A stretch of 64,000 bases of DNA from an uncultured bacterium (GCA_963801165.1 CAWDDT010000005.1:544001-608000), one strand, 5' to 3'. Shown: positions 3,214 through 48,366, counted from the first letter of the stretch. Notes: generated from the letters alone by a model not told the origin. Numbers and translations are program-made.

Positions 3214-3511
3214 GTCGGGACTTGTCGCTTTATCCGGCTTCGGTGGTCTCTATCGCGCGTCCGGCTGCCGAGACTTGACAGCGTCGTGCGGGGAGAGTCG
3301 TCCGAGGTGGCCTTCTGGGGGCATCAGGCCCTGTCAGAGGCCGCGTCAGGGATGGCGTGAGTCCGATGATGGCAGGCTGGGCCACACGCGTCTCAGTGTT
3401 GTAGGCCCCATTGACGGCATGCCTCGAGCATCCTTATGGTGTGGTCGGACAAGGCAGCGTCTGTTTGGGCGCACGACTGCGGGACGTACCGAGTATGACA
3501 GGAGGCGGACC

Positions 3512-4153: not shown

Positions 4154-4203
4154 CGCTCGTCGAGCAGAAGAGGTCTTCATCTCTTCCAGGCAGCAAGGAC
4201 TGT

Positions 4204-4300
4204 CACGGTGGTGGGTCGAGGTCGATCGCCTGCCGAGCGTTGGTGGTCTTGCCGCGCGACTTGTGGAGCTCGTATCCGATGGAGACGCGCCCGGTTGACC
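4204..4300 (-). pseudogene. Tyrosine integrase fragment (central part)
   Basis: Minus strand reads VNR/(frameshift)/VSIGYELHKSRGKTTNARQAIDLDP, like the 'GKT..SRR.I.LD' segment of actinobacterial integrases. Confidence 0.5.
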
Positions 4301-4497
4301 TTCTGACGTCTTGAACTCGGTAGGACTGATAGGGCTCCATATCGGTATCCGTCCGCTGCGCGGCTCAGACCTCGAACAGGGTCTGTCCGATGTAGCTGCC
4401 GTCTGGGAGTCCTACATCTTCCAGGGGGTTCTTCACACCTGGAGGCTAAGACGGGGCGTTTGGTGTGCATTTGGTCCGCGGGAGAAGCGGCTTTCTG

Positions 4498-4635
4498 TCA
4501 ACCGGAGTGATGCGCGTCACTGGCGAACGCGACATCAAGGGCGTCCGAGACCTTGGATCTGTCTTCGGGGTAGAGATGCCCATACCGGTCCATCGTGAGG
4601 ACGATCGAGCTGTGACCGAGGTGCTCCTGCACTAC
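4498..4635 (-). pseudogene. Tyrosine integrase C-terminal remnant
   Basis: Minus strand reads VVQEHLGHSSIVLTMDRYGHLYPEDRSKVSDALD (box II LGH and catalytic Tyr), preceded by an in-frame stop. Confidence 0.8.
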
Positions 4636-4837
4636 CTATGGACGGCAACCCCCGGGCGATACATCCATGGTGTCACTCGCTCACGTGGAGTCCCTCGTCG
4701 CCGGCGCATCGGCGCGCGTTACAGCGGTAGGTCCCCGAGAGCGATGCGCTCATTTACGCGACGGTCCGTCGCACCGCACAACGTCGGTCACTGCGAGGAT
4801 GGCAGACCCCCCCCGTAGACACGAGGAAATTCAATTT

Positions 4838-4885
4838 GTGGGCCCAGCTGGATTTGAACCAGCGGCCTCATCCTTATCAGGGATG
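4838..4885 (-). repeat. att site: duplicate of tRNA-Ile 3' 48 bp
   Basis: GTGGGCCCAGCTGGATTTGAACCAGCGGCCTCATCCTTATCAGGGATG vs 18720-18767 with one G/A difference. Confidence 0.93.
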
Positions 4886-4990
4886 ATCAAAGAGATCTGG
4901 CGACATTGGCGATGCGGCGATATCTCCTGTGTCACAGCGGATAACGTACCTCATTGGTTCGCATCATTTCTGGACGTTTCTCGTTCTCCC

Positions 4991-5010
4991 GTGGACGCGA
5001 TGTGGACGCG
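4991..5010 (+). promoter_or_regulatory. Putative integrase arm-type sites
   Basis: GTGGACGCG twice at 11-bp period; the same pair occurs at 18630-18648 at the other end of the element. Confidence 0.65.
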
Positions 5011-5331
5011 GGCAAGCTTGATCGCGCGAGGTGCGCCTCGAGACCCCTGTTCTTACGCCGTTCTTGGAGGTCTTGCCTGCCGGGACAAATCGGCGGAGAG
5101 CCTGGTTTTCCGGGCGATTCTGCCTCTCATCGTCTTTTGTCATTTCTCATGTTTGCGCCCGTTGCGGTCCAGGTGCGACCCAACTCGGGCGCGGAGGTAT
5201 TCGGCGGTGGCAGACATGTTGTACACGCCAATGGCACCGTGATCCCGGTACCGGGTGCCCTGGGGTTGGTGGGCTATCGCTGCCCTCCGGCTCCAAAGGA
5301 TGATGAGCAGCACACGCGTCGGCCGACCGTC

Positions 5332-6036
5332 TCATGGGCACTCGATCGCAGAGTTGACAGTCACCACATCTGCGATCAGAGGCTCTGGGTCGTCTACGAT
5401 CGCTACCTCCCATACGTCGTAGAGACTGCAGAGACCCTTTATGGTTGCGGCGTAGACTTCTCCGTCCTCCGTGGTGGCATGCCGCACTAGCACGGTGCTT
5501 CCATCGGTCCCTGTGCGTTCACCGATATCCTGCGCTTCTGCGCCGTCGCCGAACGCGAGAGCGATCGCTAGTTGCTCGTCACCGACGAAGGTAGCGAGCA
5601 GGGTGTAGATAGCGTCCTCCCTCACATATGTCAGCGCCGAGTACGGTGCCCCGTGGGGTTCGTCCCAACCGGGGTCCACCACTCCGAGGGCTTGCAGCGC
5701 AGTCTCGAGCACGCCGTCCAGCTCTGATCGGTCACGGGGCACCGTCGTAGCCGTCGAATCCCTTTCCATAGCAGTGGTTGTCGTTGTGCTCTCGTGGCCT
5801 CCGGTTGTCGTAATCAGATGTACGCCGGTGGTGGAAGTTGCCTGCGTGGTCTTGCTCGCATCCGCCGGGTCGCTATCAGATGAAGTCGGTGAGGTCTCCC
5901 CCGAACATGCCGCCAGGGCAATGATCATCGCGAGGATGATCAAGTAGCTAGGTCGGCGGAATGCTGAGGGCCTACAACGGCCGACGGGTATTGAGCGGCT
6001 CGACCGGTCCGGCGGTGTCTGGGTGATCGTCGTCAT
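5332..6036 (-). CDS. Lipoprotein, unknown function
   Basis: Lipobox LAAC after hydrophobic stretch, Thr-rich linker, AAGGA SD. Confidence 0.78.
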   Translation of the reverse strand: MTTITQTPPDRSSRSIPVGRCRPSAFRRPSYLIILAMIIALAACSGETSPTSSDSDPADASKTTQATSTTGVHLITTTGGHESTTTTTAMERDSTATTVPRDRSELDGVLETALQALGVVDPGWDEPHGAPYSALTYVREDAIYTLLATFVGDEQLAIALAFGDGAEAQDIGERTGTDGSTVLVRHATTEDGEVYAATIKGLCSLYDVWEVAIVDDPEPLIADVVTVNSAIECP

Positions 6037-6114
6037 TGTCCTTCTACTCCAGGGCGGTTGTGCGTCGCGTAGCGGACGAGCGGTCAGCTGAGTGCCAGTC
6101 CGCCACGCTCACTG

Positions 6115-6984
6115 CTACCAGAGGTCGCGACGGAATTGAGCCAATTCGTCCTCGTGCTCGGCGAGGAATGAGTAGTCGAATTCGAATATCGCTTTCTCGA
6201 AGACGGGACGCAGGTCAGAGTCGCACGAGGCATTCGCCTCGTACATCGCTCGCTCAAGCTCGAGCAGCTCTGCGTAGGCCTTGTGACTCAAGCCGAGAGT
6301 CTCGTCAATCTCCGCGTCGATTGCCTGATCCAACTGTCCAAGCATGTCCCCCAAGGATGACACGTCGAATCCGTTTGAAGACATGCAGTCTGCCCATTCG
6401 TGAATTGCTCTTGAAACCCTCGGGTCCGACTCGAGCGTCGAGGCACGCGCGGCCATGTATTCGATCCTGAGTGGAGCTATCGCCACGGCAAGGCCGGGCG
6501 TCATCCTGTACGCCGCTCCAGTGCAGCTGGCCGCGAAGTCCTCAGCCGATTGGCTCGGATTCTGCCAATCGCGGCCATAGAGGGCTTCGTAGTATCGAGA
6601 GCGTTCACCCGAATCGAGGGATTCGGCATACACGATGTTGGGGTCATCGCGCACCACTAGCCCGGTCTCATTTAGCTTGTCCCTGCTGAAGGATGTGACG
6701 AAGCCGAAGTACTCCTCCGGCTCATCACTGCCTGGCTCGAAGACATTGAAATCTGGAGCCAGCGGCACAAACGGCATACCCACGCCGTTCATACACTTCT
6801 GGATCGAGTCCTGGCGTGCTGTCTCCTCAGCGTCGAAGATGCTTCTCTCGATGTCCGGGTTGTGCCCCAGACCCACGTATTCCGCGAGGGGAGAGGTAGG
6901 CACGGTCTGGGCTCGGGCCGCCGTGCCAGCAACGACTCCAACGAAGGCGACTGCGGCCACAGCTACCAGCTTGGCTGTCTTCAT
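6115..6984 (-). CDS. Secreted protein with paired Cys (CM) motifs
   Basis: AAAGGAG SD, signal peptide MKTAKLVAVAAVAFVGVVAGTAARA; motifs QKCMNGVG, SCTG, WADCMSSNG, ASCD. Confidence 0.8.
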   Translation of the reverse strand: MKTAKLVAVAAVAFVGVVAGTAARAQTVPTSPLAEYVGLGHNPDIERSIFDAEETARQDSIQKCMNGVGMPFVPLAPDFNVFEPGSDEPEEYFGFVTSFSRDKLNETGLVVRDDPNIVYAESLDSGERSRYYEALYGRDWQNPSQSAEDFAASCTGAAYRMTPGLAVAIAPLRIEYMAARASTLESDPRVSRAIHEWADCMSSNGFDVSSLGDMLGQLDQAIDAEIDETLGLSHKAYAELLELERAMYEANASCDSDLRPVFEKAIFEFDYSFLAEHEDELAQFRRDLW

Positions 6985-7010
6985 TACTTGTGCTCCTTTC
7001 ATCGACGGCA

Positions 7011-7748
7011 CTAATAGATCAGGTTTCGCGGATAGCCGAGATATGTGTCCACTCCGTAGCCGATCCGCCACTGCCATGTCCGATTGCGTAGCCAGCTGAC
7101 TCCCAAGCTGTATGAGTGGTAGTCGGCTTCGACGTAAGCTGCCTTCGCGACGGTTTGTGTTAGCTCACCCAGGGAGTCGTACTGTGAGCAATCAGGCGTG
7201 TAGCAAATCTTGTCGCCAGTGCCTGGGCTCGAGGTCTTGAGCGCATCACGAAGGTCCTCGGCGAAGGCTACCTGGCTGGTGTATTGGTAGATTATGTGTG
7301 TTCCACCGTACGACGCAGAGGCCCCGCAGTCCTTTGTCTTGGCGTTGGAGTGAATCGGGATGTGGATGTCAGCACCCCAGGAGTTCGAGTCACTGATCTT
7401 CGTGCTGGCGCTCACTCCCCAGCGCACTTTGACGTAATAATGCCGGTCTAGTAGATCCGTGCCGTAGCCGGAAGCTGCCTCCACGGCTATGTCTGGGGCG
7501 CCTTCCGATACGCTGTCCTCAACGTAGCCGTCGCAGCCCACGTTTGCACCGCCGTGATAGGCCGGAGACAGATAGACCTTGTACTGGTTCCAGCCATTCG
7601 TCGGCCAATAGTAAGCACTGCCCGCCGAGGCCGGCTGGGCAGCGACAAGATTGCCCACGGCAAACGACGCACCAAAAGCAACCAGCATCAGAATTGCCAA
7701 GCGGACAGCCTTTCGGCGCAGCTTTGCTTTATCTGCGGCATTCATCAT
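7011..7748 (-). CDS. Secreted N-acetylmuramoyl-L-alanine amidase (Amidase_3-like)
   Basis: Signal peptide ending ASA; VYLSPAYHGG...E, SNSWGADIHIPIHSNA and AYVEADYH supply Zn ligands and the catalytic Glu. Confidence 0.82.
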   Translation of the reverse strand: MMNAADKAKLRRKAVRLAILMLVAFGASFAVGNLVAAQPASAGSAYYWPTNGWNQYKVYLSPAYHGGANVGCDGYVEDSVSEGAPDIAVEAASGYGTDLLDRHYYVKVRWGVSASTKISDSNSWGADIHIPIHSNAKTKDCGASASYGGTHIIYQYTSQVAFAEDLRDALKTSSPGTGDKICYTPDCSQYDSLGELTQTVAKAAYVEADYHSYSLGVSWLRNRTWQWRIGYGVDTYLGYPRNLIY

Positions 7749-7851
7749 GACCTCACTCGAATCTCGTTTGTCTCGAACACCGTTCGTCTCCCCTTTCCTT
7801 GAAGGTCTCGCAGATCAGGAACTCTCTTGCCTGCACCTCTCTGTCGTAATA

Positions 7852-7879
7852 CTTGGTCATGACCGCCCGATGGGTTCAG
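7852..7879 (-). promoter_or_regulatory. Putative ECF promoter motif A (variant) for the amidase operon
   Basis: Minus strand CTGAACC-N16-CCAAG, one mismatch in each half relative to the copies at 8083, 9269 and 14067. Confidence 0.5.
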
Positions 7880-8082
7880 GTCGAAGTGCCCGAATCCAAC
7901 GGCTGCGAGGCCACACGGAGGAGCTCGTTCAGGTCTACGCCCAAACGAGGGCGGGCCCAGCGCTACGGAGGATGGCCGTAGCGGCGCCGGACCCACCCCC
8001 ACATAGATGTTGATCTCAGCCTGTCTGGTGGTTCACCGACCGGAGTAGGCCTGGAGCCAGCCGAGTGATTGCAGCGATGACC

Positions 8083-8110
8083 GTGAACCGAATTGCGCCT
8101 GGAGTCAAAG
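8083..8110 (+). promoter_or_regulatory. Putative ECF promoter motif A
   Basis: GTGAACC-N16-CAAAG about 33 bp upstream of 8143; same spacing as the other copies. Confidence 0.65.
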
Positions 8111-8142
8111 TGCAGTGAGTCAGTCCAGATATTGATCGGAGG

Positions 8143-8679
8143 ATGGCCGTGACTGATTTCATTGTGCAGGCGCTCGCCGCGGCGGTAATCGCTGGGTCGC
8201 TTGGGCCTGCTACCCCAGCTGTCGTAGAGCAGCACTGCGTTGTCGAGGTTGTTGGTCAGGCAGAGGATGGGGAGTTGATCATGTCTGATCCGGTGTGCTT
8301 CGCCGGGTTCGCCGAGGCGATGAGCTACGCCTCTAGCGGTGAACTGGCGTTGCCGGACCAGATCGAGGGCTCTGCTGTGCTTGTGGACGCTGCGGTGGCT
8401 GCGGCGGTGTCGTCGTTCTCGATCGGCATCCACTACTCGGATTACAACGGTGGTGGAAGCTCCATGACCATCTCAGGGTCGGCGTGCACGGGTGGCTATT
8501 GGAATGCCACTGGCTGGTGGGCGAATCGGATCAAGTCGTCATACAACGGCTGTCCGAGGCTGCGCCACTACGACAGCCCGAACCTCGGCGGAGCTTCACA
8601 GACGACGTACACCGCGGGTCAGATCGACAATCTCTCGGCGTTGGCCGGGAAGGTCGAGTCTGTCCAGTATCTGCCGTGA
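8143..8679 (+). CDS. Secreted protein with N-terminal Cys pair and beta/gamma-crystallin-like (peptidase inhibitor I36-like) domain
   Basis: Hydrophobic leader; HCVV...PVCF; HYSDYNGGGS, WWANRIKSS, HYDSPNLGG, KVESVQY Greek-key-like motifs. GTG 8149 is an alternative start after GGAGG. Confidence 0.72.
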   Translation: MAVTDFIVQALAAAVIAGSLGPATPAVVEQHCVVEVVGQAEDGELIMSDPVCFAGFAEAMSYASSGELALPDQIEGSAVLVDAAVAAAVSSFSIGIHYSDYNGGGSSMTISGSACTGGYWNATGWWANRIKSSYNGCPRLRHYDSPNLGGASQTTYTAGQIDNLSALAGKVESVQYLP

Positions 8680-8682
8680 GTC

Positions 8683-9324
8683 TTGGTGGTGAACTCCTGT
8701 CGAGCGCCGTCCCACGGCGCTCGACATCGGGGTCGGCTGTATTCTCAGGCTGACTTGATTCCAGATTCTGATGTGATCGCTGCCTCGTTGGATGTTCCGG
8801 ATCGTTTCGGTGAGATCTTTGACCGGTACGGTCGACGTGTCTTCGGATATGTCGCTAAACGGATCCCCCGCGAGGATGTGGCCGATGTCACTGGTGATGT
8901 GTTCTTGCGCGCCTTTCGGATCCGACACCGGTACGACCTTGGTCGACCCGATGCTCTGCCGTGGCTGCTTGGTATTGCTACCAACGTGATCGGCGAGTAT
9001 CTCAAGAAGCGCAAGCGGAGAGCCAGAATTGGCCTACGTCCCGATGCTGCGACCGACCTGCCCGTCGAGGAGCTTGCGACCGAGCGGGCAGACGCGGCTC
9101 AGTCCAAGCCCCTCTTGGACCAGGCACTCGCTTCGCTCCATCCTCGTGACAGGTCTGTATTGATTCTCTACGCCGTCGAGGATCTGTCGTATCGGGAGAT
9201 CAGCGACGCTCTTGCCGTCCCGGTCGGGACCGTCAAATCGCGCCTGAACCGGGCACGAGCCGCCGCAAGTGAACGCATTAGTAGTTCGCGCCAAAGACCT
9301 TACGATGGACGCAGAAATGAATAG
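8683..9324 (+). CDS. ECF-family RNA polymerase sigma factor
   Basis: Region 2 FDRYGRRVFGY...DVTGDVFLRAF...PWLLGIATN; region 4 LSYREISDALAVPVGTVKSRLNRAR. Confidence 0.93.
   Translation: MVVNSCRAPSHGARHRGRLYSQADLIPDSDVIAASLDVPDRFGEIFDRYGRRVFGYVAKRIPREDVADVTGDVFLRAFRIRHRYDLGRPDALPWLLGIATNVIGEYLKKRKRRARIGLRPDAATDLPVEELATERADAAQSKPLLDQALASLHPRDRSVLILYAVEDLSYREISDALAVPVGTVKSRLNRARAAASERISSSRQRPYDGRRNE
9269..9296 (+). promoter_or_regulatory. Putative ECF promoter motif A inside the sigma gene, upstream of the anti-sigma gene
   Basis: GTGAACG-N16-CAAAG ending 8 nt before ATG 9305. Confidence 0.6.
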
Positions 9325-10300
9325 CAGACGCGATGCAGAGCTTGATGCTGCGGTACGCTCGCTTGTGGGCGATATCGTCCCCACCGATGCCGAACTCGCA
9401 TCGGTGCGCTCGCGACTTGAGGCCGCAATATACGAGGAACGCTACCGGCGCAAGGCTGGAGTTAGTTGGCGATACGCGTGGGCAGCGGGGGTTGTTGCGG
9501 TAGCTCTCGTTGTGACCGGTGCTGTCCTGTGGGCACGACCAGCGCCCCTGCAAGCCGCGCTCGCCGAATACGCCGAGATACTCCTCCAACAGGAACCGCT
9601 GCAACCACAAGCAGGCCAGTTCATCTACCAGGAATCCCACACCACCCAGCTGGCAGTGGTCGACGGATCAGAGCTACCCGACCTTGACGTAGAACAGATC
9701 GCATATCTGATCGTTGGAGAACGGCAGGTCTGGGTTGGTGCCGACAACACCATCGAGCTCGCCATAACCCCAACCGGAGTGGAGTTCTTCTCTGACGAGG
9801 CAGCCGCCGCCTACCAACATGCCGGGCTGGCAGAACTCGACGGTATCGGTGTTACCACCACCGTCACCCAACAATCGCAACTCTTCCCTGACCTGCCCCA
9901 AACACCAGAAGAACTCGAGCAATACCTCCGCGAACAGGCCCGTCTCGGAGGAGGCGTGCTGTCCGAGGACGAACACCTCTTCAACCTCCTAGCGGCGGTC
10001 CTCGCCGATCCCACCATCCCAAACAGCTCGAAAGCTGCCGCCGCAGATGTGATCGGCACCATCAAGGGCGTGAAACTCGTGGAACGGACCGACAGCCATA
10101 TCACTCTGGCGTTGGAGTACACCGACCTCGGTCAGGTGCAACGAACCCTCACTCTCGATCTCACCGCTCCCCAACTCGCATCCGACACGACCGAGCTTCT
10201 CGGTGCCCTCGACGAACTCGACATACCGACTGGGACCATCATCGACGAGACACACTACGAGCCGTCGATCACCACAACATCCGGTTTCCCACCGAGGTAG
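9305..10300 (+). CDS. Putative membrane anti-sigma factor (CU044_5270-like)
   Basis: Overlaps sigma stop; short cytoplasmic N-terminus, one TM helix (WAAGVVAVALVVTGAVLW), extracellular domain with GQFIY, LPQTPEEL and KAAAADVI motifs. Confidence 0.78.
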   Translation: MDAEMNSRRDAELDAAVRSLVGDIVPTDAELASVRSRLEAAIYEERYRRKAGVSWRYAWAAGVVAVALVVTGAVLWARPAPLQAALAEYAEILLQQEPLQPQAGQFIYQESHTTQLAVVDGSELPDLDVEQIAYLIVGERQVWVGADNTIELAITPTGVEFFSDEAAAAYQHAGLAELDGIGVTTTVTQQSQLFPDLPQTPEELEQYLREQARLGGGVLSEDEHLFNLLAAVLADPTIPNSSKAAAADVIGTIKGVKLVERTDSHITLALEYTDLGQVQRTLTLDLTAPQLASDTTELLGALDELDIPTGTIIDETHYEPSITTTSGFPPR

Positions 10301-10771
10301 TAGAGAGGAACTTTCTGCCCAAAGGTGCAATGCCGCTTGCTCGGCAATTGTCGGCCGGGCGGCTGCGGCGATCAGAATGTGTTGGCAACGCGTTGGTACA
10401 GTCTTTCGTTGTTCACCCAGCGTCTCCATCCGTTGCCGGTGGGGTCCGGAAGTGGCATGACCTCGACTCGGGGGTTCTCCGACAATCTGATGATCGCGGG
10501 GTACCTGCTGCATGTCCTCGACGACCGCCGAGCGACCTGGTCTAGATTCGATAAGCAGCAATCCGGAATCACGGGTCGTGGACAGCAGAGCACACGTTCG
10601 AGGGCTTGCGCAGCCACGTGCCGCAGAGCCTCCACACTCTCAGGACGATTCCGGGGCCGCGCCGCCTTTCGTTGCCGCTGCGAGCGCGGCGGTTGTGGAA
10701 CAGCTGATATGTTCCGCTCGGTGGCAATACCCATACCCGGGGGCGGCGGCTTCGTGAGAATGGCTACCGTC

Positions 10772-11926
10772 CTAGCCGTGGCTTGCGCTCGCGCGATTCA
10801 GCTCCCACACTGTCACTCCATCGTGGTCAATGACGCCAATGTAGGGATCGCCGGACACCGGGTCGAGTCCCAGACTGTTCGGTGTACCCGGGTTCCGGCC
10901 CCCAAATGGATCCGGTATCGGAAGTGCGCGCACAAGGTTCCCAGACCGATCGATTTCTACGTAGGCGCCTATTCCAACTTCCTCGTTGATCTCGGAGAAT
11001 CCAGCCAGCAGCAGATGCAGCGAACCCTGGCGATCGGCGATCACCTCTACAACCGCAAAGACATCTCCACCATCGATCGACGTCATCTCGAGATCGACCA
11101 ACATGGCTGGCTGTGCGTCCGGGAGTGACATACGAACAACTGCGGGATTGCTGGGGTCGGCGGCAAGGCGATAGCGGGAGCCTGCCGGGGTCCGCAGATA
11201 GTCAACCGCCTCGGCAACGAGCGCCCCGTCTTCTATCGCAACCGCAAAGAATCGGGACCCGAGCGTTTCACGTCCAAATACGACATCGCCGTCGTTGTTG
11301 ATGAGGCTCAACAGCCTGTCGCTTTCCTGGTAGGTGATGCGATTGCCAATGATTGTCGCCAAACGCATGTTCGTGGATGAGGCAATAGCGGTCCCGTCGC
11401 TGAGTATCTGCAAACCGGAGAGGGGAGCTTCGTGGGCAATGTCTACCGAATCGAAGAAAGATCCGTCGCGTCCGTACCGGGCGATTCGATCCTTGTAGTT
11501 ATCGAGTATCCACCACCGGCCGAGGAGGTCAAGCGCCACCGGCAGTTCGGGACCCCACGGCTCGTTGACGGAATCCCCGTTCCCGAGCAAGGACTCGTCG
11601 CTCCCATAGCCAAGCGACAGCGCCACTTGCCAATCCTCCGCGAGCGAGAACGGCGTGAGGGAAACGTCATAGTGACGAGTAATCGGATCGAGGCCTACCG
11701 TTGCGGGCGCGACAGTAGTTGTCGAGGTGGTAGTTGGTTCGTCGATTCCGACGTTCTGTGTGGGAACCGTTGATGACCCGGTGTCCTGTATGGCTCCCGT
11801 CGAGCGGGAGGTTCCGGGAGGCACCGGTGGCTCGCTGGTCTCGCTGCACCCAGCGAGACCAGCGAGGACCACGACGAATACCAACCCGAGCTTGAGCGTC
11901 AACTGCAAGTGCCGTCCCAAAGACAT
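10772..11926 (-). CDS. Lipoprotein with NHL-like beta-propeller
   Basis: Lipobox LAGC, Thr linker; GYGSDESLLG...WGPELPVALDLLGRWWILDNYKDRI is paralogous to a segment of 12567-14036. Confidence 0.78.
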   Translation of the reverse strand: MSLGRHLQLTLKLGLVFVVVLAGLAGCSETSEPPVPPGTSRSTGAIQDTGSSTVPTQNVGIDEPTTTSTTTVAPATVGLDPITRHYDVSLTPFSLAEDWQVALSLGYGSDESLLGNGDSVNEPWGPELPVALDLLGRWWILDNYKDRIARYGRDGSFFDSVDIAHEAPLSGLQILSDGTAIASSTNMRLATIIGNRITYQESDRLLSLINNDGDVVFGRETLGSRFFAVAIEDGALVAEAVDYLRTPAGSRYRLAADPSNPAVVRMSLPDAQPAMLVDLEMTSIDGGDVFAVVEVIADRQGSLHLLLAGFSEINEEVGIGAYVEIDRSGNLVRALPIPDPFGGRNPGTPNSLGLDPVSGDPYIGVIDHDGVTVWELNRASASHG

Positions 11927-12570
11927 CCTCCCCAGCGACGTACGCCGGTGAAGGACGAATCACCTCGGTAGGTCCTGACCCATAACCCGGTGCCATCCGC
12001 CTCGCCCTTGGCTTCGATGATGTTGTCGGTGTTCCAGGTCGATGTTGTGGAGTAGATCATCCCAATATGCGAACTCGAAGCCAGCGCATCCATGTAGATG
12101 GTTGACGCCTTGCTGATCTGAGACAGATTTGGGCCGTCTCCTGCTTTGAATTCCGAGGCTGTAAAGGCCCCGTGGATGTTTCTGAGTTGCGGCCAGTATC
12201 TGTATCCGGTCGACGTTTCATTGTCAACCAGAGCCCAAGATTTGAATGTGAATCCCGAGCAATCGCCGCCCTCGCCATGCGTACTCGCAGTCTTAACGGG
12301 ATCGCCGGGTTGGTCATCGATGTTGTTGTTGTTCCAACAGCCGCCGTACCAGTGATACCCCTCATAGCGAGCCACATAGGAGTAGCTGCGAGCAGACGAG
12401 CGATTCCAGGACGAAAGGCTGTAGTCCGTATCCGTGTTGCAGTTGTCCCAGAAGCCATGGGCCGCTGCCTCGGGCGCGTCGATCGCGCTAACGGCAATAA
12501 GCCCCACGAGGAGACCAACGAAGAATCGGACGATGTGGAGGCGCCCGATGTAGCGAATGTGGTGTGTCAT
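11899..12570 (-). CDS. Secreted NlpC/P60-like cell-wall peptidase
   Basis: Signal peptide ending AAA; GGDCSGF (Cys), SHIGMIY (His), IIEAKG (third residue). Confidence 0.78.
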   Translation of the reverse strand: MTHHIRYIGRLHIVRFFVGLLVGLIAVSAIDAPEAAAHGFWDNCNTDTDYSLSSWNRSSARSYSYVARYEGYHWYGGCWNNNNIDDQPGDPVKTASTHGEGGDCSGFTFKSWALVDNETSTGYRYWPQLRNIHGAFTASEFKAGDGPNLSQISKASTIYMDALASSSHIGMIYSTTSTWNTDNIIEAKGEADGTGLWVRTYRGDSSFTGVRRWGGCLWDGTCS

Positions 12571-14036
12571 GACAAGCCTCCAATCTCGAAACGTGCAATC
12601 CAGAATCCAAGTTCATCGTTGCGCAGCTGGTAGAGGCCATTGGGACCAACCTCGAATCGTCCCAGCACCGAGCTGTCCGCCCACCGTGAAGCGTCGACTG
12701 CGAAATGCTCCGTTGACCCATCAGCGTTCAGCACAATGACCTCGAAGACGGCGTCGTTGTCGGTCCAAGTCCGGATGACGACCAGCAAGCGCCCGTTGAC
12801 AATCTCGGCTAGCTGAACTTCGCCGATTTCCCGGTCACTTGTGATACTCCACACAGATCGAATTGAACCCCCACTGATGAGAGCGAAGAGCGCGTGGTCG
12901 CTGTCGGCTGACACGACAAGCTGAGGTTCGGCCAGATCAATCGAGCCGGTCGCCAGCGCACCGTCAGACTCTGACGTGACTCCCGCCTCAGCGCTGGTTA
13001 CCTCAACGAGTCCGCCGATTTGAGCAGCGTCCCTGGTTCTCAAAGGTACTCCAACCGGTGCATTCTCGAGCTGGTCTGGTCGAGCAACCGGTGTGGCATC
13101 GTAAAACGTCGTTGCCCACACACTCCTCGTAGCATCGTGGAGTACCACGCTAGAGTCGATCGCTTCGAGCTTCTCCGGAAGAACATCAGCGAGGAAGCTG
13201 GTCGAGAGGAGCGCGCCTCCCGGGTCGTATGCGGTGATCTTCGGATGGATGCCCGCGCCACCATCGAGAACGAAACGCGTCCCGTCGTCACCTATCGCCA
13301 GATCGGCCAATCCTCCTGTGTGCTCAATAGTCTGAACCTCCGGAGTGCTCGCGCCGCTTGACCACGTGAGCAAGCGGCCGTTAACGCGGTCCAAGACGAC
13401 CAAGGCACCATCGGGATCGAATGCGAACGCGGCTGGACCCTGAACATCTGATTCGTGGCCACCGGTGACACCAAACTCGTTAATCCCATCACCCCATCCT
13501 CCTGAGACGATGATCTCTTCTGGCGGAGTAGCTGATGGGGATGCGGGTAGATGGGTATGGACAGCCGTGCTGTAGCTCCACGCTTCGTGAAACAGGTCAC
13601 GCCGATCCGGTACGCGCACTGTCTCTCCAGTTGCAGTGTTTGAGATTTCCGCGTAGTACTGGAAGCCGTTGTCGGTCACCTGTGGCGGGATGGTTGCTTC
13701 GAGGATAGGGGGGTACTCCCCGGGCTCAAGACTGATTCTCTGGAACGAGTCTGACCCTTGGCTCCTTACGAACACGAAGCCTTCGACGTCACACAGCATG
13801 TCACCGCGTTCGAATGCCTCTTCATCCCAAGCGCAGACAGTGTCATACACAAGCGAGACCGGCTCACCTCGTTCGACCAATACCGGCTGCTTGTGAAACG
13901 CCTGGAATCCTTCCGTTGATGTCGCCAGTCCACGGCTCTGGCCGATGACAATCAAACCTCCTACAGTGACCCCGAGGGCTAGGCCCACTGTCGCGGGCCA
14001 CCGCACGAGTCTCGAGAAAAGCTGTCCCTTGCGCAC
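12567..14036 (-). CDS. Secreted/membrane-anchored protein with NHL-like beta-propeller
   Basis: GGAGG SD then GTG 14036 (track start 14057); N-terminal TM; GGWGDGINEFG...QGPAAFAFDPDGALVVLDRVNGRL. Confidence 0.78.
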   Translation of the reverse strand: MRKGQLFSRLVRWPATVGLALGVTVGGLIVIGQSRGLATSTEGFQAFHKQPVLVERGEPVSLVYDTVCAWDEEAFERGDMLCDVEGFVFVRSQGSDSFQRISLEPGEYPPILEATIPPQVTDNGFQYYAEISNTATGETVRVPDRRDLFHEAWSYSTAVHTHLPASPSATPPEEIIVSGGWGDGINEFGVTGGHESDVQGPAAFAFDPDGALVVLDRVNGRLLTWSSGASTPEVQTIEHTGGLADLAIGDDGTRFVLDGGAGIHPKITAYDPGGALLSTSFLADVLPEKLEAIDSSVVLHDATRSVWATTFYDATPVARPDQLENAPVGVPLRTRDAAQIGGLVEVTSAEAGVTSESDGALATGSIDLAEPQLVVSADSDHALFALISGGSIRSVWSITSDREIGEVQLAEIVNGRLLVVIRTWTDNDAVFEVIVLNADGSTEHFAVDASRWADSSVLGRFEVGPNGLYQLRNDELGFWIARFEIGGLS

Positions 14037-14066
14037 AATTCCTCCATTCCTCGACAACGTTGATGT

Positions 14067-14094
14067 CTTTGCCGTGAATCGTCGACTGGTTCAC
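14067..14094 (-). promoter_or_regulatory. Putative ECF promoter motif A for the propeller-NlpC/P60 operon
   Basis: Minus strand CCGTGAACC-N16-CAAAG, about 30 nt upstream of the 14036 start; both halves identical to the 8081-8110 copy. Confidence 0.65.
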
Positions 14095-14175
14095 GGATCT
14101 CATCTCCAAGCGAAGCCTCTCGGCGCGGCCAGAGGAGATCGGGACGAGCGGGCAGGTGACGCTCTGCGGTCGTGA

Positions 14176-16836
14176 TCAAGGATGAATGTCGAGGCCACAC
14201 TCATGTCCATGTTCATGGTCAATGGCCGCCGGTCGCATCCGGCTGCGGGCGAACATTGCGGAAACGTCATCAGCTCCGGGTTGCCGTGTTCGGTGGGTGA
14301 GGTGGGTGCATTCTTCCCGGCCGGGTTCGCGGGTGGCAAGGTAGAGGGTGTTGGCGTTGCGCCCCCGGCTGAGGGCGACGTAGGCCCATTCCCGGTCGGT
14401 GGTTCCGGTGATGACGGTGAAGGTACGTCCGGTCGTGATGCCTTGGGCTTTGTGGGCGGTGAGGGCGTATCCGTACCCGACATTCCCGTCGGTGAGACAC
14501 CAACCCGGAAGCTCTCGGGTTTCGGGGTCTCGGTCGAGACGAACCGTAACGGTTCCGGCTTTCTGGTCGACGGCGGTGATGGTGCCGAGGTCGCCGTTGA
14601 GGACATCGAGGTGGTGTTGGTTTCGGCGGCAGAGGATCCGGTCACCGGCCTGGAGAACCACGCCCGACGCTTCGTGTGTGGGTCCGTGGAGGCGTCCGGA
14701 GGTGGCGAGGTGCTGGCGTGCCTTTTCGTTGAGTTCGGTGACGGTGTCGTTGTCGTGGGCTAGGAGCATTGCCGAAGCGATGTCACCCGCTCTCTGGACG
14801 TGCCGGTACCAGTCGCTGCTCGCTTGTGCAATCGTGTCGGTGCGGGTGCGTCCGAGGATGAGGCGCCGATGCTCGGCATAGGCTTGCATTGCTTGTTGTA
14901 CTGATCCGTTGCGGAGCTCGTCGAGTGCTTGGCGTTCCCAGGCCGCCTGTTGACGAACGTTGTCGGTGAGTTCGACGGCTGGTAGCCGGTTGGCGAGGGC
15001 ACGGAATAGGCCGCCAGCGTCGATCTCGGGGAGTTGCTTGTAGTCCCCGATCAGGATCAGTTTCCCTTGTGCTTGTTCGACCAGGTCGACGACGGCGGCG
15101 AGTTGCCGGGTGCCGACCATGCCGGCCTCGTCCACAACCACAACAACACCGGTAGGAAGGCCGGACCCGTGGAGGAGCCGGGCGAGGGTGGTGGAGGGGA
15201 CGCCGGTGTCGGTTTGTAGGCCGGCTGCGGTGCGGGCGGCAAGCGCGGCACCGATGATGGGTCGTCTGGTGAGTTGGGCGAGTTGGTTGATGACGGCGAC
15301 GACTGCTGTTTTGCCGCTGCCGGCGGGGCCGATACCGATGTCGATGCTGTTGCCGGAGGTTGCGAAGCTGCGCACCATCTGGCGTTGCCCTTCGGTGAGT
15401 TCCGGTCTGTGCCGTAGCCAGGTTTCCACGAGACGCCGGGGTGCCTGCCAGCGGCCCTGACCTACACCGGCCATTGCGTATTCGATGATCCGCTGTTCGG
15501 TGGCGAGGAGTTCTGCGGTGGTGTAGCTGGGCAGCGCTGGCGCGGGGAACGGCGCACCGTCACGGGTTCGCATCGCAATCACCGCTCCCTCGACGAGTTC
15601 TCGATCCTCCGGCTCGGCGGGCGAATCCGCCTCGTCCCCGGTAGCGGGTTCGAGTTGAGGGCCGGGTAGCAGTGGGATGATGTCACGGCCGGTGAGGAAT
15701 GAGTTGGCGAGGGTCTCGATCTCAGCCCGGGTGCCACCCTCGGGGAGTGCCGCGGCGATGTGTTGGATGACTTCTGGTGTGGCGAATGTCGACCTGTGGG
15801 CGGTGAGCCCGTCTGGTGACGCCAGATCCGCAAACAACGCTCCCACATCTGGTGTGGTGACCCGTCTGCTGCGATCGACGATCCGACTGATCCTCTCCGG
15901 AGTGAGACCCACCTTTGCGGCTCGTCGCTGCCAGACCGCTTCCAGCTCGTCGAGGGGACGGTTGGTCTTGGTCGTGCGGGTGGCGATCACCGCCACCTGC
16001 CGCGCCGCCGCCGTATCCGGAAGACCCTCTTCCTGTCGCCAGGCTTCGAGCTGTCGACGCCGCTGGGAGAACGCTTCGATCTGGGTACGGGTGAACCCGG
16101 CAATATCGGCGACACCGTGATGTACCGGCTGCCACCGCACCCCGAGCCGGTCCGTGAGCTCCCGGCGCAACACTGCCTCATGCAGGTAGCCGGCGGCGAG
16201 CTGATGCCGATACAACAGTCGACCGTCGATAGTCCGCCACACCCCATCGACGCCGTTGACCGTGTTGGCAACGACGACATGGGTGTGTAGCTGCGGGTCG
16301 TCGGCCCGTGACGTGTATTCGGTGAACGCCGCCGCCACATACCCCGACGTCGCGATCGGCCAGGTCTCTACCCGATACCTCGGTCGCCCATCCGGGCCAC
16401 GAACCCGATTTCCGTTCTCGTCGACGACCGGTGTCTTGGTGGCGCCACGAGTGTCGGATGCCACCGACTCCAGATAGCTGAAAGCCTGTGACGTTGCCTC
16501 GCCGAACGCCTCCAGGACCTCTTTGCGGGTGAGTTCGTCACCCAGCGCCCACAACAGCGACACCGACTTGTCCGCCGAGAAGGTCACATCCCACGCCGCC
16601 ACCCCGTCCGTGCGGAGACGACGCCCCAACTGCTCACCGGTGCCGGGATGGTTCCCGTCGAACAGCCGCACCAGACCCTCCGCCGACACACTGCCCGCAA
16701 GGCCCAACTCGGCGGCTCCCGACCCGCACCAACGACCGGTGGCGGTGCCGCCGCGCAGGTAGTAGTCCTCCCGCGGTGAGATCTCACCCAGCTTCTGCAG
16801 GTAATAGTCCTTGACCGCCTTCGCCAGACTCAACAC
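14176..16836 (-). CDS. MobF (TrwC/TraI-like) relaxase with C-terminal helicase
   Basis: N-terminal DYY..DYY tyrosines, DVTFSADKSVS, TSRADDPQLHTH (HUH), Walker A GPAGSGKT, VVDEAGM, YALTAHKAQG. Confidence 0.95.
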   Translation of the reverse strand: MLSLAKAVKDYYLQKLGEISPREDYYLRGGTATGRWCGSGAAELGLAGSVSAEGLVRLFDGNHPGTGEQLGRRLRTDGVAAWDVTFSADKSVSLLWALGDELTRKEVLEAFGEATSQAFSYLESVASDTRGATKTPVVDENGNRVRGPDGRPRYRVETWPIATSGYVAAAFTEYTSRADDPQLHTHVVVANTVNGVDGVWRTIDGRLLYRHQLAAGYLHEAVLRRELTDRLGVRWQPVHHGVADIAGFTRTQIEAFSQRRRQLEAWRQEEGLPDTAAARQVAVIATRTTKTNRPLDELEAVWQRRAAKVGLTPERISRIVDRSRRVTTPDVGALFADLASPDGLTAHRSTFATPEVIQHIAAALPEGGTRAEIETLANSFLTGRDIIPLLPGPQLEPATGDEADSPAEPEDRELVEGAVIAMRTRDGAPFPAPALPSYTTAELLATEQRIIEYAMAGVGQGRWQAPRRLVETWLRHRPELTEGQRQMVRSFATSGNSIDIGIGPAGSGKTAVVAVINQLAQLTRRPIIGAALAARTAAGLQTDTGVPSTTLARLLHGSGLPTGVVVVVDEAGMVGTRQLAAVVDLVEQAQGKLILIGDYKQLPEIDAGGLFRALANRLPAVELTDNVRQQAAWERQALDELRNGSVQQAMQAYAEHRRLILGRTRTDTIAQASSDWYRHVQRAGDIASAMLLAHDNDTVTELNEKARQHLATSGRLHGPTHEASGVVLQAGDRILCRRNQHHLDVLNGDLGTITAVDQKAGTVTVRLDRDPETRELPGWCLTDGNVGYGYALTAHKAQGITTGRTFTVITGTTDREWAYVALSRGRNANTLYLATREPGREECTHLTHRTRQPGADDVSAMFARSRMRPAAIDHEHGHECGLDIHP

Positions 16837-17017
16837 GAGACACCGCCTGAAGCAACTGGTTGCAGATGCGTGTGTCGATCAGGCCGTCGGTACAGTCGAA
16901 GCGGTACGAGTGCCGTGGCGACGATTGCGGTCGTGCCTGCTCGAGGCTGGTCGCAGACGGATCTTCCGCAAAGGTTCGGGTCTGGCCAGAGTCTCATAGC
17001 TCCGACTAGACACCCTG

Positions 17018-17192
17018 ACCCTCTCACCAGAGTCTCAAAAACCCTCCACAAATCCTGTCCAAAACCCTGTCAACCGATCCCGGCCGGCCCGCCACCAAGA
17101 AAAACCTCACCCGCCGAAATCGCCCGCCAAATCGGCGTTTCCGACCCAATGACAGGTCCAAGTGCAGCGAAATGGGACTCTGGTGAGAGGGT
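17018..17192. repeat. 20-bp inverted repeat between the divergent relaxase and xis-int genes
   Basis: ACCCTCTCACCAGAGTCTCA (17018-17037) vs reverse complement of 17173-17192 (1 mismatch); partial copy CCAGAGTCTCA at 16986-16996. Confidence 0.8.
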
Positions 17193-17211
17193 TGGACTTC
17201 ATGCTCAGAGG

Positions 17212-17412
17212 ATGGAACGTCTCGATCGGCTCCTCACTGTCCAAGAACTCGCCAACTACCTCGGAGTGCCCGTATCGACCATCTACGCGTGGCGATACCG
17301 ACACGAAGGTCCACCCGGCTTTCGCGTCGGTCGACACGTGCGCTTCCGGCGGAGCGACGTCGAACGGTGGCTCAACGATCAGCTCGACAAGGTTCGAGGA
17401 CAAAGAACTTGA
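17212..17412 (+). CDS. Excisionase-like helix-turn-helix protein
   Basis: MERLDRLLTVQELANYLGVPVSTIYAWRYRHEGPPGFRVGRHVRFRRSDVERWL, directly upstream of the integrase. Confidence 0.9.
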   Translation: MERLDRLLTVQELANYLGVPVSTIYAWRYRHEGPPGFRVGRHVRFRRSDVERWLNDQLDKVRGQRT

Positions 17413-17546
17413 AGAAGTGCCGGGGGCAATAGGCGAAGTCGGTGGTAGTTCTGACAGTCGCCTGCAACTTGCATGGCGATCTTGAGGGTGGCGCCACCTC
17501 GGACATGGGGGTACGGTCGGCGGAGGAGCTCCAGGAGGTAGACGAC

Positions 17547-18716
17547 GTGGGTTCGGTACGAAAGGTGAAGCATCGATCCGGCAAGGAGAGCTGGCAAGCA
17601 CGGTGGCGGGACCCGTCGGGCACGGACCGTTCCAAGAACTTCGACCGGAAAGTAGACGCCAGCCAATACCTCGTTGGCTTGGAGTCCGACAAGCTCCGCG
17701 GGCGTTACACCGACCCTCGTCTTGGCCGGACCAAGCTCGCCGGATGGATCCGGGAATGGCAGGCCACACGGACGAACCTGAGTCCTCAGACGCGTCTCCG
17801 TGACGAAGCCTCGATTCGCAATCACGTGCTCCCCGCATTCGGTACCGTTCCGATCGGGCAGCTCCGGCCGGCGCATGTCGCACGGTGGGTTGCGGACCTC
17901 GACGCCAACGGCTCAGCGCCGGCCACCACCCGCAAGGCCTACCAGCTTCTAGCTGCCGCACTGTCCGACGCAGTGGACAATGGGCTCATCCCGCTATCGC
18001 CATGTAGGAACGTGAAGCTCCCCAAGCTCACCTCCCCGGAGATGAGGATTCTCGAGCCGGCAGAGATCAAGGCTCTGGCCGGTGCCGTCGACGAGCGCTA
18101 CCGAGCGATGATCCTGGCCGCGGCGTACACGGGGCTACGTTTTGGTGAACTTGCCGCTCTTCGGATAGAGCGATTCGACGCCCTGCGGAGGACGATCCGA
18201 GTGGAGGAAAGCCTCGCTGAGATCCGAGGGCAGTTCATGGTGAAACCGCCGAAGTCGGACGCCTCTCGCCGGATGGTCTCAGTGCCGTCGTTCGTAGTCG
18301 AGGAGCTGGCGCAACACCTAGCTGAACATGCCGACGGTTCCGGCCTCGTTTTCAATGCACCGTCTGGTGGTCCGATCCGACGTACGAACTTTCGACGACG
18401 GGTATGGCTTCCGGCGGTCCGAGCGTCGGTCGGAGAGCCGTGCACCTTTCACGATCTCCGACATACACACGCTGCACTTCTCATCGCCGTGGGTGAACAC
18501 CCGAAAGTCATCCAGGGACGGCTCGGTCACGCGTCGATCAAGACCACTCTCGATACCTACGGGCACCTCTTCGAGGGGCTCGATGAGGCCGCCGCGGATC
18601 GTCTCGACAAGGTGTGGCGCACCGCTGCTGTGGACGCGGTGTGGACGCAGCGAGATCGGGAGATAATCGAGTTCACAGGCAGAAAACCAAAACCCCTTGC
18701 GGGGCAAGGGGTTTGA
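17547..18716 (+). CDS. Tyrosine recombinase/integrase
   Basis: Arm-binding N-terminus WQARWRDPSG..RSKNF; TGLRFGEL, HDLRHT, LGHASIKTTLDTYGH; GGAGG SD before GTG 17547. Confidence 0.96.
   Translation: MGSVRKVKHRSGKESWQARWRDPSGTDRSKNFDRKVDASQYLVGLESDKLRGRYTDPRLGRTKLAGWIREWQATRTNLSPQTRLRDEASIRNHVLPAFGTVPIGQLRPAHVARWVADLDANGSAPATTRKAYQLLAAALSDAVDNGLIPLSPCRNVKLPKLTSPEMRILEPAEIKALAGAVDERYRAMILAAAYTGLRFGELAALRIERFDALRRTIRVEESLAEIRGQFMVKPPKSDASRRMVSVPSFVVEELAQHLAEHADGSGLVFNAPSGGPIRRTNFRRRVWLPAVRASVGEPCTFHDLRHTHAALLIAVGEHPKVIQGRLGHASIKTTLDTYGHLFEGLDEAAADRLDKVWRTAAVDAVWTQRDREIIEFTGRKPKPLAGQGV
18690..18714 (-). terminator. Intrinsic terminator downstream of tRNA-Ile
   Basis: Perfect 11-bp stem AAACCCCTTGC-GGG-GCAAGGGGTTT with a T-rich tail on the minus strand. 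Confidence 0.75.
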
Positions 18717-18717
18717 C

Positions 18718-18795: not shown

Positions 18796-18861
18796 GTAGG
18801 GTTGGCGAGTTTACCACCATGGAGGACGAACGATCCGGGGCCGGCATGCTGAACGGCCAAC

Positions 18862-27007: not shown

Positions 27008-27020
27008 GGTCTTCTCCTTC

Positions 27021-48363: not shown

Positions 48364-48366
48364 CTT

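Follow-up and report, generated by a model that had tools for sequence, protein, structure and literature searches.

The window analysed here is a 64-kb stretch of DNA from an uncultured bacterium (GCA_963801165.1, CAWDDT010000005.1:544001-608000), and all coordinates given without further qualification are window positions. Two direct repeats of 48 bp, 97.9% identical (4838-4885 and 18720-18767), are copies of the 3' part of a tRNA-Ile gene. The tRNA-Ile gene lies at 18718-18795 on the minus strand and contains the right attachment repeat; the left repeat is a weak tRNA fragment by its Rfam score. Pfam matches delimit a mobility module (14176-18716) with a TrwC-type relaxase gene (14176-16836, minus strand, E 3e-74), a small helix-turn-helix (HTH) open reading frame (ORF) and a tyrosine integrase gene (17442-18716, plus strand) that abuts the tRNA. 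Because of the tRNA-Ile repeats, the adjoining integrase and the TrwC relaxase, the segment 4838-18767, called Element 1 here, is a predicted 13.9-kb integrative mobilisable element at tRNA-Ile; it has the pairing of a tRNA-proximal tyrosine integrase with a distal repeat of the tRNA 3' part that defines integrative elements. The rest of the element holds three transcription units, namely a leftward cargo operon, an operon with the gene for a sigma factor of the extracytoplasmic function (ECF) type, and a second leftward operon, referred to below as the right-hand cargo operon. An earlier note on this DNA had proposed that the element encodes its own ECF regulon, with the bipartite motif GTGAAC[C/G]-N16-CAAAG before each cargo operon. 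Our analysis makes it probable that the sigma factor encoded at 8755-9324 has this motif as its cognate promoter, which would fire at five sites, all of them within Element 1.

The sigma operon is transcribed from the plus strand. Its first gene (8149-8679) encodes a secreted Cys-rich protein of 176 amino acids, and the GTG start (8149-8151) was set by alignment with the ATG of the orthologue in locus L001, described below. The protein is weakly similar to peptidase inhibitor I36, which is of the beta-gamma-crystallin type. The crystallin-like label previously attached to it could not be upheld at family thresholds: the match to PF03995 (I36) reaches 16.3 bits against a cut-off of 21.1 bits (E 0.009), the L001 orthologue is below threshold too, the orthologue in locus L002 gave no I36 match, and a PDB profile search with the protein found no match. 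Between the first gene and sigma lies a conserved 13-bp hairpin without a U-tract (8698-8726, plus strand, fold z -3.28), a candidate attenuator or 3'-end stabiliser whose stem is kept in L001 with changes on both arms. The sigma gene (8755-9324) encodes 189 amino acids from a TTG at 8755, placed by alignment with the GTG of L001 and with close homologues; the gene caller had chosen GTG 8689. The protein matches Sigma70_r2 (E 1.4e-10) and Sigma70_r4_2 (E 1.2e-16) with no Pfam match to r3 or r1, and it scores 82.6 bits against TIGR02937 sigma70-ECF (cut-off 42.9), the domain content of an ECF (group 4) sigma factor. No NCBIfam equivalog, the SigL and SigU models included, came near its cut-off. 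The third gene (9305-10300), which overlaps the sigma stop and starts at ATG 9305 or ATG 9317 (the gene caller's choice), encodes a putative single-pass anti-sigma protein. It has one hydrophobic segment at about residues 53-73, no recognised anti-sigma domain, and a match to NCBIfam CU044_5270 (E 8e-18) whose 65 bits are below the 100-bit cut-off. Close homologues of both sigma and anti-sigma are mostly metagenomic.

The coordinates that had been given for five motif sites proved correct throughout when the sequence was read directly. Site C (GTGAACC-N16-CAAAG, 8083-8110, plus strand) is the promoter candidate of the first gene/sigma/anti-sigma operon. Site D (GTGAACG-N16-CAAAG, 9269-9296, plus strand) lies in sigma codons 172-181, 8 nt before ATG 9305, and is a candidate internal promoter for the anti-sigma gene. 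Site E (GTGAACC-N16-CAAAG, 14067-14094, minus strand) is the promoter candidate of the right-hand cargo operon, with a predicted transcription start about 23 nt before GTG 14036. Site A (7852-7879, minus strand), CTGAACC-N16-CCAAG or alternatively TGAAC-N18-CAAG, is the proximal promoter candidate of the leftward operon, some 95 nt before ATG 7748, and site B (8009-8036, minus strand), GTGAACC-N16-TCAAC or alternatively TGAAC-N18-CAAC, is a divergent promoter candidate with a predicted start near 8001. The same spacing had been claimed for sites A, C, D and E; this holds for the three exact N16-CAAAG sites, whereas the variants A and B fit better as TGAAC-N18-CAA and account for two of the three N18 matches in the window. 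At sites C and E a Shine-Dalgarno sequence (SD) and start codon follow 23-32 nt past the predicted transcription start. The flanks and spacers of the five sites are mutually unrelated.

The exact motif is far more frequent than in random sequence, with three occurrences in the window against 0.01 expected and none of 100 shuffles reaching three; with up to two mismatches it becomes unspecific on its own (15 matches against 7.4 expected). TGAAC-N17-CAA was observed six times against 0.82 expected, and TGAAC-N18-CAA three times against 1.07 expected, from 60 first-order Markov simulations. Five of these nine core matches fall within 7839-14094 (post-hoc Poisson P 1.5e-6 for the clustering), all intergenic or in the sigma tail and all directed into genes, and the other four lie in wrong-strand coding regions or in a second element. 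Those at 1242, 29383 and 34331 were rejected as lying on the antisense strand within coding regions, and TGAAC-N17-CAA at 59500 (plus strand), in the second element, was rejected as lying inside the 5' end of an opposite-strand ORF with a score below 8 bits in the position weight matrix (PWM) introduced below. Since the pattern was defined from the sites and then counted, these window statistics are circular, and the independent test lies in other genomes.

Proposed promoter motif across the sigma factor family

With aligned close homologues of sigma as the query, a single scan of species-representative genomes yielded 80 loci, 1.2 Mb in total. The loci come from Microbacteriaceae, Streptosporangiales, Acidimicrobiia, Solirubrobacterales and others; the sigma of L001, a metagenome-assembled genome, is 70% identical to that of Element 1, and those of the other loci are 36-46% identical. 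The top hexamers in the 270 nt upstream of sigma were GTGAAC (42 of the 80 loci versus 6 for control stretches) and CGTGAA (38 versus 4), followed by GAACCG (39 versus 6), TGAACC (31 versus 1) and, as words of the -10 type, GCAATA (33 versus 1) and CAATAC (32 versus 3). The enriched words combine to CGTGAAC[C/T]-N17-CAATAC, which by pattern stands directly upstream of sigma in 36 of 79 loci. The looser form [G/C]TGAAC-N15-19-CAA was found in 38 of the 80, with a gap of 18 nt at 35 of the 38 sites.

A PWM was built from 33 unique sites in 36 loci and applied to the 43 held-out loci, with 1011 stretches from the same loci as controls. Twenty-two of the 43 held-out loci scored above the 95th percentile of the controls and 20 above the 99th, most of the scoring loci having GGAAC or GCGAAC in place of GTGAAC and some an AAAT-, AAAG- or AAGA-type -10, with a gap of 17 nt in the Acidimicrobiia loci. 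From the set of 80, 38 loci were searched for the family of the gene that follows sigma; in 29 of them it is CU044_5270, in 11 with a score above the curated cut-off. By these comparisons the sigma factor is a member of a large actinobacterial ECF group paired with predicted single-pass anti-sigma proteins of CU044_5270 type. The promoter of the group would consist of a [G/T]GAAC[C/T] -35 element, a gap of 17-18 nt and a CAA[T/A] -10 element, and the window motif would be its 17-nt CAAAG version. An AAC-bearing -35 element at a fixed spacing before the own operon, the mark of ECF autoregulation, is thus found in silico. The proposal that the motif is an ECF promoter gains its backing from this family-wide upstream motif, from the 20 held-out loci and from the exact orthologous motif in L001. 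Additional high-scoring sites in the collection (L045 11316, L064 6185, L076 8823 and L079 8823) each have a GTG or ATG start about 11 nt after them, which reads GTGAGCACAG at L064, L076 and L079 and resembles that of sigma genes; they probably belong to tandem paralogous sigma genes with the same promoter type.

When the window was scored with this matrix, trained on foreign sites, the five sites ranked 2, 5, 12, 23 and 62 among 127,880 positions. Site E, at 16.6 bits, is the one at rank 2, and it was the top match with the first version of the matrix; site A (6.4 bits, two mismatches to the strict motif) ranks 23 and site B (4.0 bits) ranks 62. Two further candidates were rejected. The match at 17402-17440 (plus strand), just before the integrase start, is not conserved in L001 and was treated as chance. 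The second, GTGAACT at 8689-8695 just ahead of sigma, lacks a CAA at the proper distance, reads GTGAGC in L001 and scores 0.8, and it is not regarded as a promoter.

Two of the 80 loci contain the first gene as well as the sigma pair. L001 resembles the element in the first gene (62%), sigma (70%), anti-sigma (48%), relaxase (66%) and integrase (47%). The sole exact match to the strict motif in the 1.2 Mb is found there, at 4939-4966, before the first-gene orthologue. In the alignment of this site with site C, the sequences are unrelated upstream of the -35 element; both have GTGAACCGA and the SD, and their spacers have diverged. A 20-nt block from the -10 element onward, TCAAAGTGCAGTGAGTCAGT (8105-8124), is identical in the window and L001. 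Its AGTGAG part aligns with AGTGTGAG of the family, in which the GTG is the leaderless sigma start, and the block could be a relic of an ancestral sigma start ahead of which the first gene was inserted. L002, from Acidimicrobiia, has the same order of first gene (42%), sigma (46%) and anti-sigma, and a variant site, GTGAAT-N17-CAAATAG, before the first gene. Only four matches to TGAA[C/G/T]-N17/18-CAA occur in its 12.8 kb. One precedes the first gene, one lies within the 3' end of sigma, one is on the divergent strand, and the fourth stands ahead of a PG_binding_1 gene. The element in L001 also carries a second, distant ECF sigma (1534-2154, minus strand, 31% identical), and a metallopeptidase-like gene (3384-4481) is among the divergent neighbours there. 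No motif site was found before these neighbours other than the divergent stem-loop promoter treated below, and they may answer to the second sigma.

Candidate feedback devices around sigma

The order promoter, first gene, sigma, anti-sigma is conserved in three loci, and for this reason autoregulation from site C is supported. The positive feedback proposed earlier is therefore retained as far as gene order goes, with the restriction that in the window and in L001 the transcript must read through the hairpin before sigma; in L002 the gap between first gene and sigma is only 32 nt. For the family at large, 21 of 36 loci have an in-frame start 11 nt past the C of CAA, which suggests that the sigma mRNAs are leaderless; the start lies at +13 in one locus, +2 in one and +40 in two, and none is in range in 11 of the 36. 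Predicted ECF promoters with leaderless transcripts are reported for Actinobacteria in PMC7776599. TATTCT lies 9 nt before the sigma TTG in the window and TAATTT 8 nt before the GTG in L002, L001 having no such hexamer, and we infer that these hexamers could give basal leaderless sigma transcripts.

A second form of feedback would start inside the sigma gene. L001 has GTGAACT-N16-CAAAC (6127-6154) at the position of site D. When the last 130 nt of sigma were scanned in all 80 loci, with 8.5 bits as the 99th percentile of the controls, at least 14 loci scored 9.8-22.2 bits (L039, L080, L070, L065, L020, L014, L074, L002, L050, L032, L066, L068, L063 and L001), the 13 besides L001 at 12.3-22.2. 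The -10 variants of the upstream and the internal site agree within a locus: L063 has GGGAAAGA in both, and L065, L070 and L080 have GGGAACTTTTG...GGGCAATA at upstream and internal site alike.

The codons beneath these sites are unusual. A Glu aligned with E173 is present in 22 of 81 sequences and is encoded by GAA in 20 of the 22 against a background of 22.8% (binomial P 2e-11), and a Gln seven codons further on is encoded by CAA in 9 of 10 against a background of 24.5%, although such P values are overstated in that the loci are related and not independent samples. One locus, L042, has the same Glu and Gln with the codons GAG and CAG. Relatives that lack the site have other residues, which indicates that the sigma protein needs no Glu or Gln at these positions. 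Fourteen close homologues, available as proteins only, show S/G/R/N-E-R/L/H at residues 172-174 and Q-R/I/T at 180-181, all of which save one Asn fit nGT GAA Cnn ... CAA Ann. Because rare synonymous codons (GAA and CAA) hold the site, the 3' end of sigma points to selection on DNA rather than on protein. Recurrence of the D-type site in at least 14 loci, together with the rare-codon bias, thus favours the internal negative-feedback promoter predicted in the earlier note: at sequence level, a promoter of sigma's own type lies within the sigma coding region upstream of the anti-sigma gene, as in the rseA P3 type. The accompanying idea of a leaderless anti-sigma transcript holds in part. A leaderless start is plausible in the window, with ATG 9305 at +13, and it is not conserved. 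After the internal site, the start of the downstream ORF is at +9 in L074 and L068, +10 in L066, +13 in L067 and the window, +15 in L032, and at least +20 in L063 and L001; the only candidates in L002 are TTG at +6 and GTG at +39, and seven loci have no such start within 40 nt. In L001 the counterpart of ATG 9305 is out of frame, and the anti-sigma start is a GTG that overlaps the sigma stop and follows GAGGGA.

Site B, previously described as a weaker site at 8009-8036, is indeed present, and it is conserved in the three loci that hold the first gene: it reads GTGAACC-N17-CAAC in the window, and its divergent counterparts are AAGAACC-N17-CAATTC in L001 (8.4 bits, rank 3 of 28,208) and ATGAAGC-N17-CAATAC in L002 (15.9 bits, rank 1 of 25,526). 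The first 51-59 nt of the predicted RNA form one long stem-loop that starts within a base of the predicted +1. In the window this is a 54-nt stem-loop (7947-8000, minus strand; -44.1 kcal/mol, z -2.98, none of 200 shuffles as stable), and in L001 and L002 it lies at 4709-4767 and 3598-3648, both on the minus strand; energies are -44.1, -40.8 and -37.9 kcal/mol and z values -3.0, -3.6 and -3.4 for window, L001 and L002. No copy of the hairpin was found elsewhere in the window or the loci, and Rfam over 4000-19000 returned only the tRNA and its attachment-site fragment.

The stem-loop also contains one half of a direct repeat. Two copies of the 14-mer CGGAGGATGGCCGT are present in the window, where 0.06 would be expected. 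The downstream copy (8137-8150, plus strand) covers the SD GGAGG (8138-8142) and the first two bases of the GTG start of the first gene, and the complement of the upstream copy (7966-7979, plus strand) is the predicted segment of the minus-strand RNA directed against the ribosome-binding site (RBS). Thus the SD and start region of the first gene have their complement in ACGGCCAUCCUCCG, which lies in the apical loop and 3' arm of the stem-loop; the apical loop contains CCAUCCU in the window and UCAUCCU in L001. L001 has a 13-mer of its own twice (4728-4740 and 4992-5004) and L002 an unrelated 12-mer twice (3612-3623 and 3725-3736). In all three loci one copy lies in the 5' untranslated region (5'UTR) or SD of the first gene and the other upstream of its promoter, the upstream copy being at +22 to +26 of the predicted divergent RNA. 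The predicted RNA would be perfectly complementary to the RBS region, which shuffled sequences matched in 0 of 2000 cases for the window, 0 of 2000 for L001 and 1 of 2000 for L002, where the pairing is split by a 7-nt bulge with the SD still covered. A structured RNA is the probable product of site B; it could be a small RNA of its own or simply the leader of the divergent operon. Our hypothesis is that this RNA can mask the RBS of the gene that heads the sigma operon.

Cargo operons, mobility module and surroundings

The leftward cargo operon (5332-7748, minus strand) has three genes: an Amidase_3-like gene (7011-7748), followed by two genes (6115-7077 and 5332-6036) for secreted or lipoprotein-like proteins with N-terminal hydrophobic segments. 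The right-hand cargo operon (10772-14036, minus strand) consists of three overlapping genes, described as possibly propeller-like (12567-14036), NlpC/P60-like (11899-12570) and DUF7485 (10772-11926; E 3e-32), and its GTG start at 14036 is preceded by GGAGGA-N3. Most of the functional labels suggested before are not confirmed by profile searches. The amidase match is to Amidase_3 at E 1e-4 and 22.8 bits, below the 27-bit cut-off; for the propeller, an NHL repeat alone was found at E 0.11; and the NlpC/P60 protein has no Pfam match even at E 5, its own profile matching the catalytic NlpC/P60 domain of LytE over 47 residues at only E 0.012. The last protein belongs to a family of proteins of about 210 amino acids with 894 matches, and no Pfam domain occurs among the 120 matches listed. 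Its residues C104 (in DCSGF) and H168 (in HIG) do not vary among 20 homologues. When the L001 spacer that separates anti-sigma from relaxase was aligned to the flanks of the right-hand operon, no similarity was seen.

Among the element ORFs scanned, which cover the small ORFs only in part, no family of mating-pore or transfer proteins was found other than the relaxase. Directly upstream of the relaxase start, the block GCAACTGGTTGCAGATGCGTGTGT (16852-16875) is kept in L001 and contains the short inverted repeat GCAAC/GTTGC; by analogy with relaxase-proximal inverted repeats we take it to be a candidate origin of transfer (oriT). Just outside the element, an ORF for an rve-type transposase (21890-22654, minus strand) lies in a low-GC stretch. 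The window also contains a second integrative element, which starts at a tRNA-Ser (48280-48364) and has an integrase gene (48381-49634, minus strand) and a second TrwC relaxase gene (49925-52672, plus strand). Farther along, an integrase-like gene is apparently split (54998-55447 and 56869-57351) by a Mutator-family transposase gene (55448-56797). No sigma factor was found among the 15 ORFs scanned in this right-hand part of the window.

Regulatory model, alternatives and known systems

The sites, their conservation, the codon bias and the fold and complementarity of the divergent RNA are matters of sequence and comparison. On top of them we place a model in which transcription starts, sigma dependence, binding between sigma and anti-sigma, and an inducing signal are all supposed. 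Sigma, once freed from anti-sigma, would start transcription at five places. From 8083-8110 it would transcribe the operon of the first gene, sigma and anti-sigma, a positive feedback that the conserved hairpin would damp, and from 9269-9296 it would supply extra anti-sigma, a negative feedback with a very short or absent leader. From 14067-14094 it would drive the three-gene operon of secreted proteins, one of them NlpC/P60-like, and 7852-7879 would be the proximal promoter of the amidase-like operon. From 8009-8036 it would make the divergent RNA whose stem-loop is complementary to the RBS of the first gene, and which would act as a second brake. The step from five promoters to a portable, self-limiting ECF circuit that drives all the cell-wall-active secreted cargo operons independently of the host is a tentative one, and we would not be surprised to see it fail. 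Such a circuit would have three feedback layers: autoregulation of an operon led by an inhibitor-like gene, an anti-sigma promoter embedded in synonymous codons, and a sigma-dependent RNA that masks an RBS.

Several observations weigh against the proposed role of sigma. The TGAAC and CAA columns of the PWM are invariant by construction. Sites C and D score only 10.0 and 8.0 bits, D slightly below the 8.5 bits of the control 99th percentile, because the window form (CAAAG, 17-nt gap) departs from the one most frequent in the family (CAATAC, 18 nt). Site C may give weak feedback, since a strong hairpin stands before sigma and sigma lacks an SD, and a consensus scan of 7700-10800 found no housekeeping promoter of the sigma-70 type. 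L001 lacks both cargo operons. When the 80 loci were searched with the cargo proteins by tblastn, the sole homologues obtained were those of the amidase-like protein and of the first-gene product, all in L002; the homologue of the first gene of the leftward operon is 36% identical and has no site within 200 nt upstream, and for the right-hand operon the search found none. Sites E and A are without comparative support, because none of the 80 loci has a site-bearing cargo orthologue. Finally, the best PWM match of the whole window, CGTGAAA-N17-CAAGAC at 27655-27691 (minus strand, 27689; 18.5 bits), falls outside the element. It lies about 100 nt upstream of an epimerase-like gene (26072-27559) and beside a PASTA Ser/Thr kinase gene (27824-30016); it is possibly a host target of a related sigma, or a chance match.

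These points give room to other explanations. That the motif is no promoter at all, being a chance cluster or the remnant of a repeat, could appeal to the circular definition of the pattern and to its merely twofold enrichment with two mismatches allowed; but the flanks and spacers of the sites are unrelated, and in other genomes the same pair of blocks stands out upstream of most relatives. We regard this explanation as very improbable. A more serious proposal is that only the autoregulatory core (C, D and perhaps B) is functional, the cargo sites E and A being chance or decayed and no cargo regulon existing. L001 has core sites only, the extra high-scoring sites of other loci belong mostly to paralogous sigma genes and not to cargo, and site A is weak, with its two mismatches and 6.4 bits. 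Against it, site E is exact, holds rank 2 of 127,880 with a matrix trained elsewhere and stands about 23 nt before an SD and start in a gap otherwise devoid of promoters, L002 also has a site before the gene of a peptidoglycan-binding protein, and two same-strand TGAAC-N18-CAA within 160 nt are unlikely by chance when 1.07 are expected per 128 kb. We consider a core without cargo regulon rather unlikely.

It is also conceivable that a chromosomal paralogue in the host serves these ECF-type promoters, in whole or in part, so that the cargo would be plugged into a host regulon. The promoter type is common to chromosomal sigma genes across many Actinomycetota, tandem paralogues share it in L045, L064, L076 and L079, and the best match of the window, which falls outside Element 1 (27689, minus strand), would suit a host regulon. 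Yet the 17-nt gap, unlike that of most of the family, is common to the window, L001, L014 and four Acidimicrobiaceae loci; sites co-vary within a locus, as in L002 with TGAA[G/T] at three sites and in L063 with GGGAAAGA upstream and internally; and no second sigma of the group was seen in the 64-kb window, of whose right-hand part 15 ORFs were scanned. We think service by a host sigma improbable. For the divergent RNA the main alternative is that the 12-14 nt direct repeats are protein operators or relics of duplication and not a device for RNA-RNA pairing. Direct repeats are a common operator layout and the element encodes a small HTH protein. But the sequence of the repeat differs from locus to locus and both copies nevertheless change together, the first gene's 5'UTR or SD always coincides with one copy, the second copy is always at +22 to +26 in a stem-loop starting at the predicted +1, and the bulge-split pairing in L002 still covers the SD. 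An operator has some claim to be considered and is doubtful on the present evidence. The ECF-regulon reading is the best explanation overall, and its core is probable.

ECF sigma/anti-sigma pairs are usually viewed as chromosomal stress sensors. Element 1, small and of the integrative mobilisable kind, carries with it a complete sigma pair along with its candidate promoters and putative target operons. If the model is right, this would be a natural orthogonal expression cassette for horizontally moved cargo. It would also define the promoter of a widespread actinobacterial ECF group with a CU044_5270 partner, a group that is uncharacterised as far as the literature was searched, and would add two compact feedback devices, a promoter within synonymous codons and an anti-RBS stem-loop RNA. 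The codon-level footprint would offer a simple way to spot coding-embedded promoters in other sigma genes.

Taken as a whole, the locus is an unusual arrangement of a well-known kind of system. Cis-encoded antisense and anti-SD RNAs are structured, expose an SD-complementary sequence in a loop and have a nearby promoter. The predicted RNA of site B resembles them in its loop, complementary to an SD and start region, and in its nearby promoter. Unlike RNAs that are antisense by overlap, it would be made from the opposite strand some 120-230 nt upstream, and it owes its complementarity to a short DNA sequence that is directly repeated.

Among described ECF groups, ECF17 (SigL of M. tuberculosis, SigU of S. 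coelicolor) is similar in being actinobacterial and autoregulated with a TGAACC -35 element, according to PMC7826278; the partner here is of CU044_5270 type without a recognised anti-sigma domain. The ECF17 promoter is given as TGAACA-N14-TCCGTAC in PMC9194655, and membership was rejected: the -35 element fits, but the described -10 of ECF17 is CGT, against CAAAG or CAATAC here. ECF209, a small actinobacterial group of the ECF re-classification, has a predicted -35 element, CCGTGAACC, nearly the same as the family consensus CGTGAACC (PMC7826278). Membership in this group was likewise rejected, since as described ECF209 has the -10 CCGACTGT, a variable spacer and a four-helix protein at position +1, as opposed to CAA[T/A], 17-18 nt and one segment here. 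The same source lists TGAAC with CGT for ECF31, TGAACCTTT for ECF33 and TGAAC with TGTATA for ECF212. A -10 of the CAATAC type does not appear among the group descriptions consulted in supplementary file 1 of PMC7826278, and none of the five TGAAC-type groups, compared by their descriptions, combines a CAA[T/A] -10 with a one-helix CU044_5270 partner. Among the papers listed in literature searches, judged by title and opening of the abstract, none dealt with this promoter, with the CU044_5270 partner or with an ECF regulon of an integrative element, which does not prove that no such paper exists.

The closest parallel to the internal site is the P3 promoter of E. coli rseA, which is described in PMC8595263 as sigmaE-dependent, lying inside the rpoE coding region and transcribing only rseABC. 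As in that system, an ECF sigma would drive its own operon and, from a promoter in its own coding region, the anti-sigma gene, giving negative feedback. The two differ in position, rseA P3 lying 228-230 nt upstream of rseA with a long regulated leader by the same account (PMC8595263), whereas the site here is in the last sigma codons, and 9-26 nt separate it from the start of anti-sigma in the window, in L001 and in several relatives. They differ also in that rare synonymous codons maintain the site here, and the proteins and the type of anti-sigma are unrelated to those of E. coli beyond the ECF fold.

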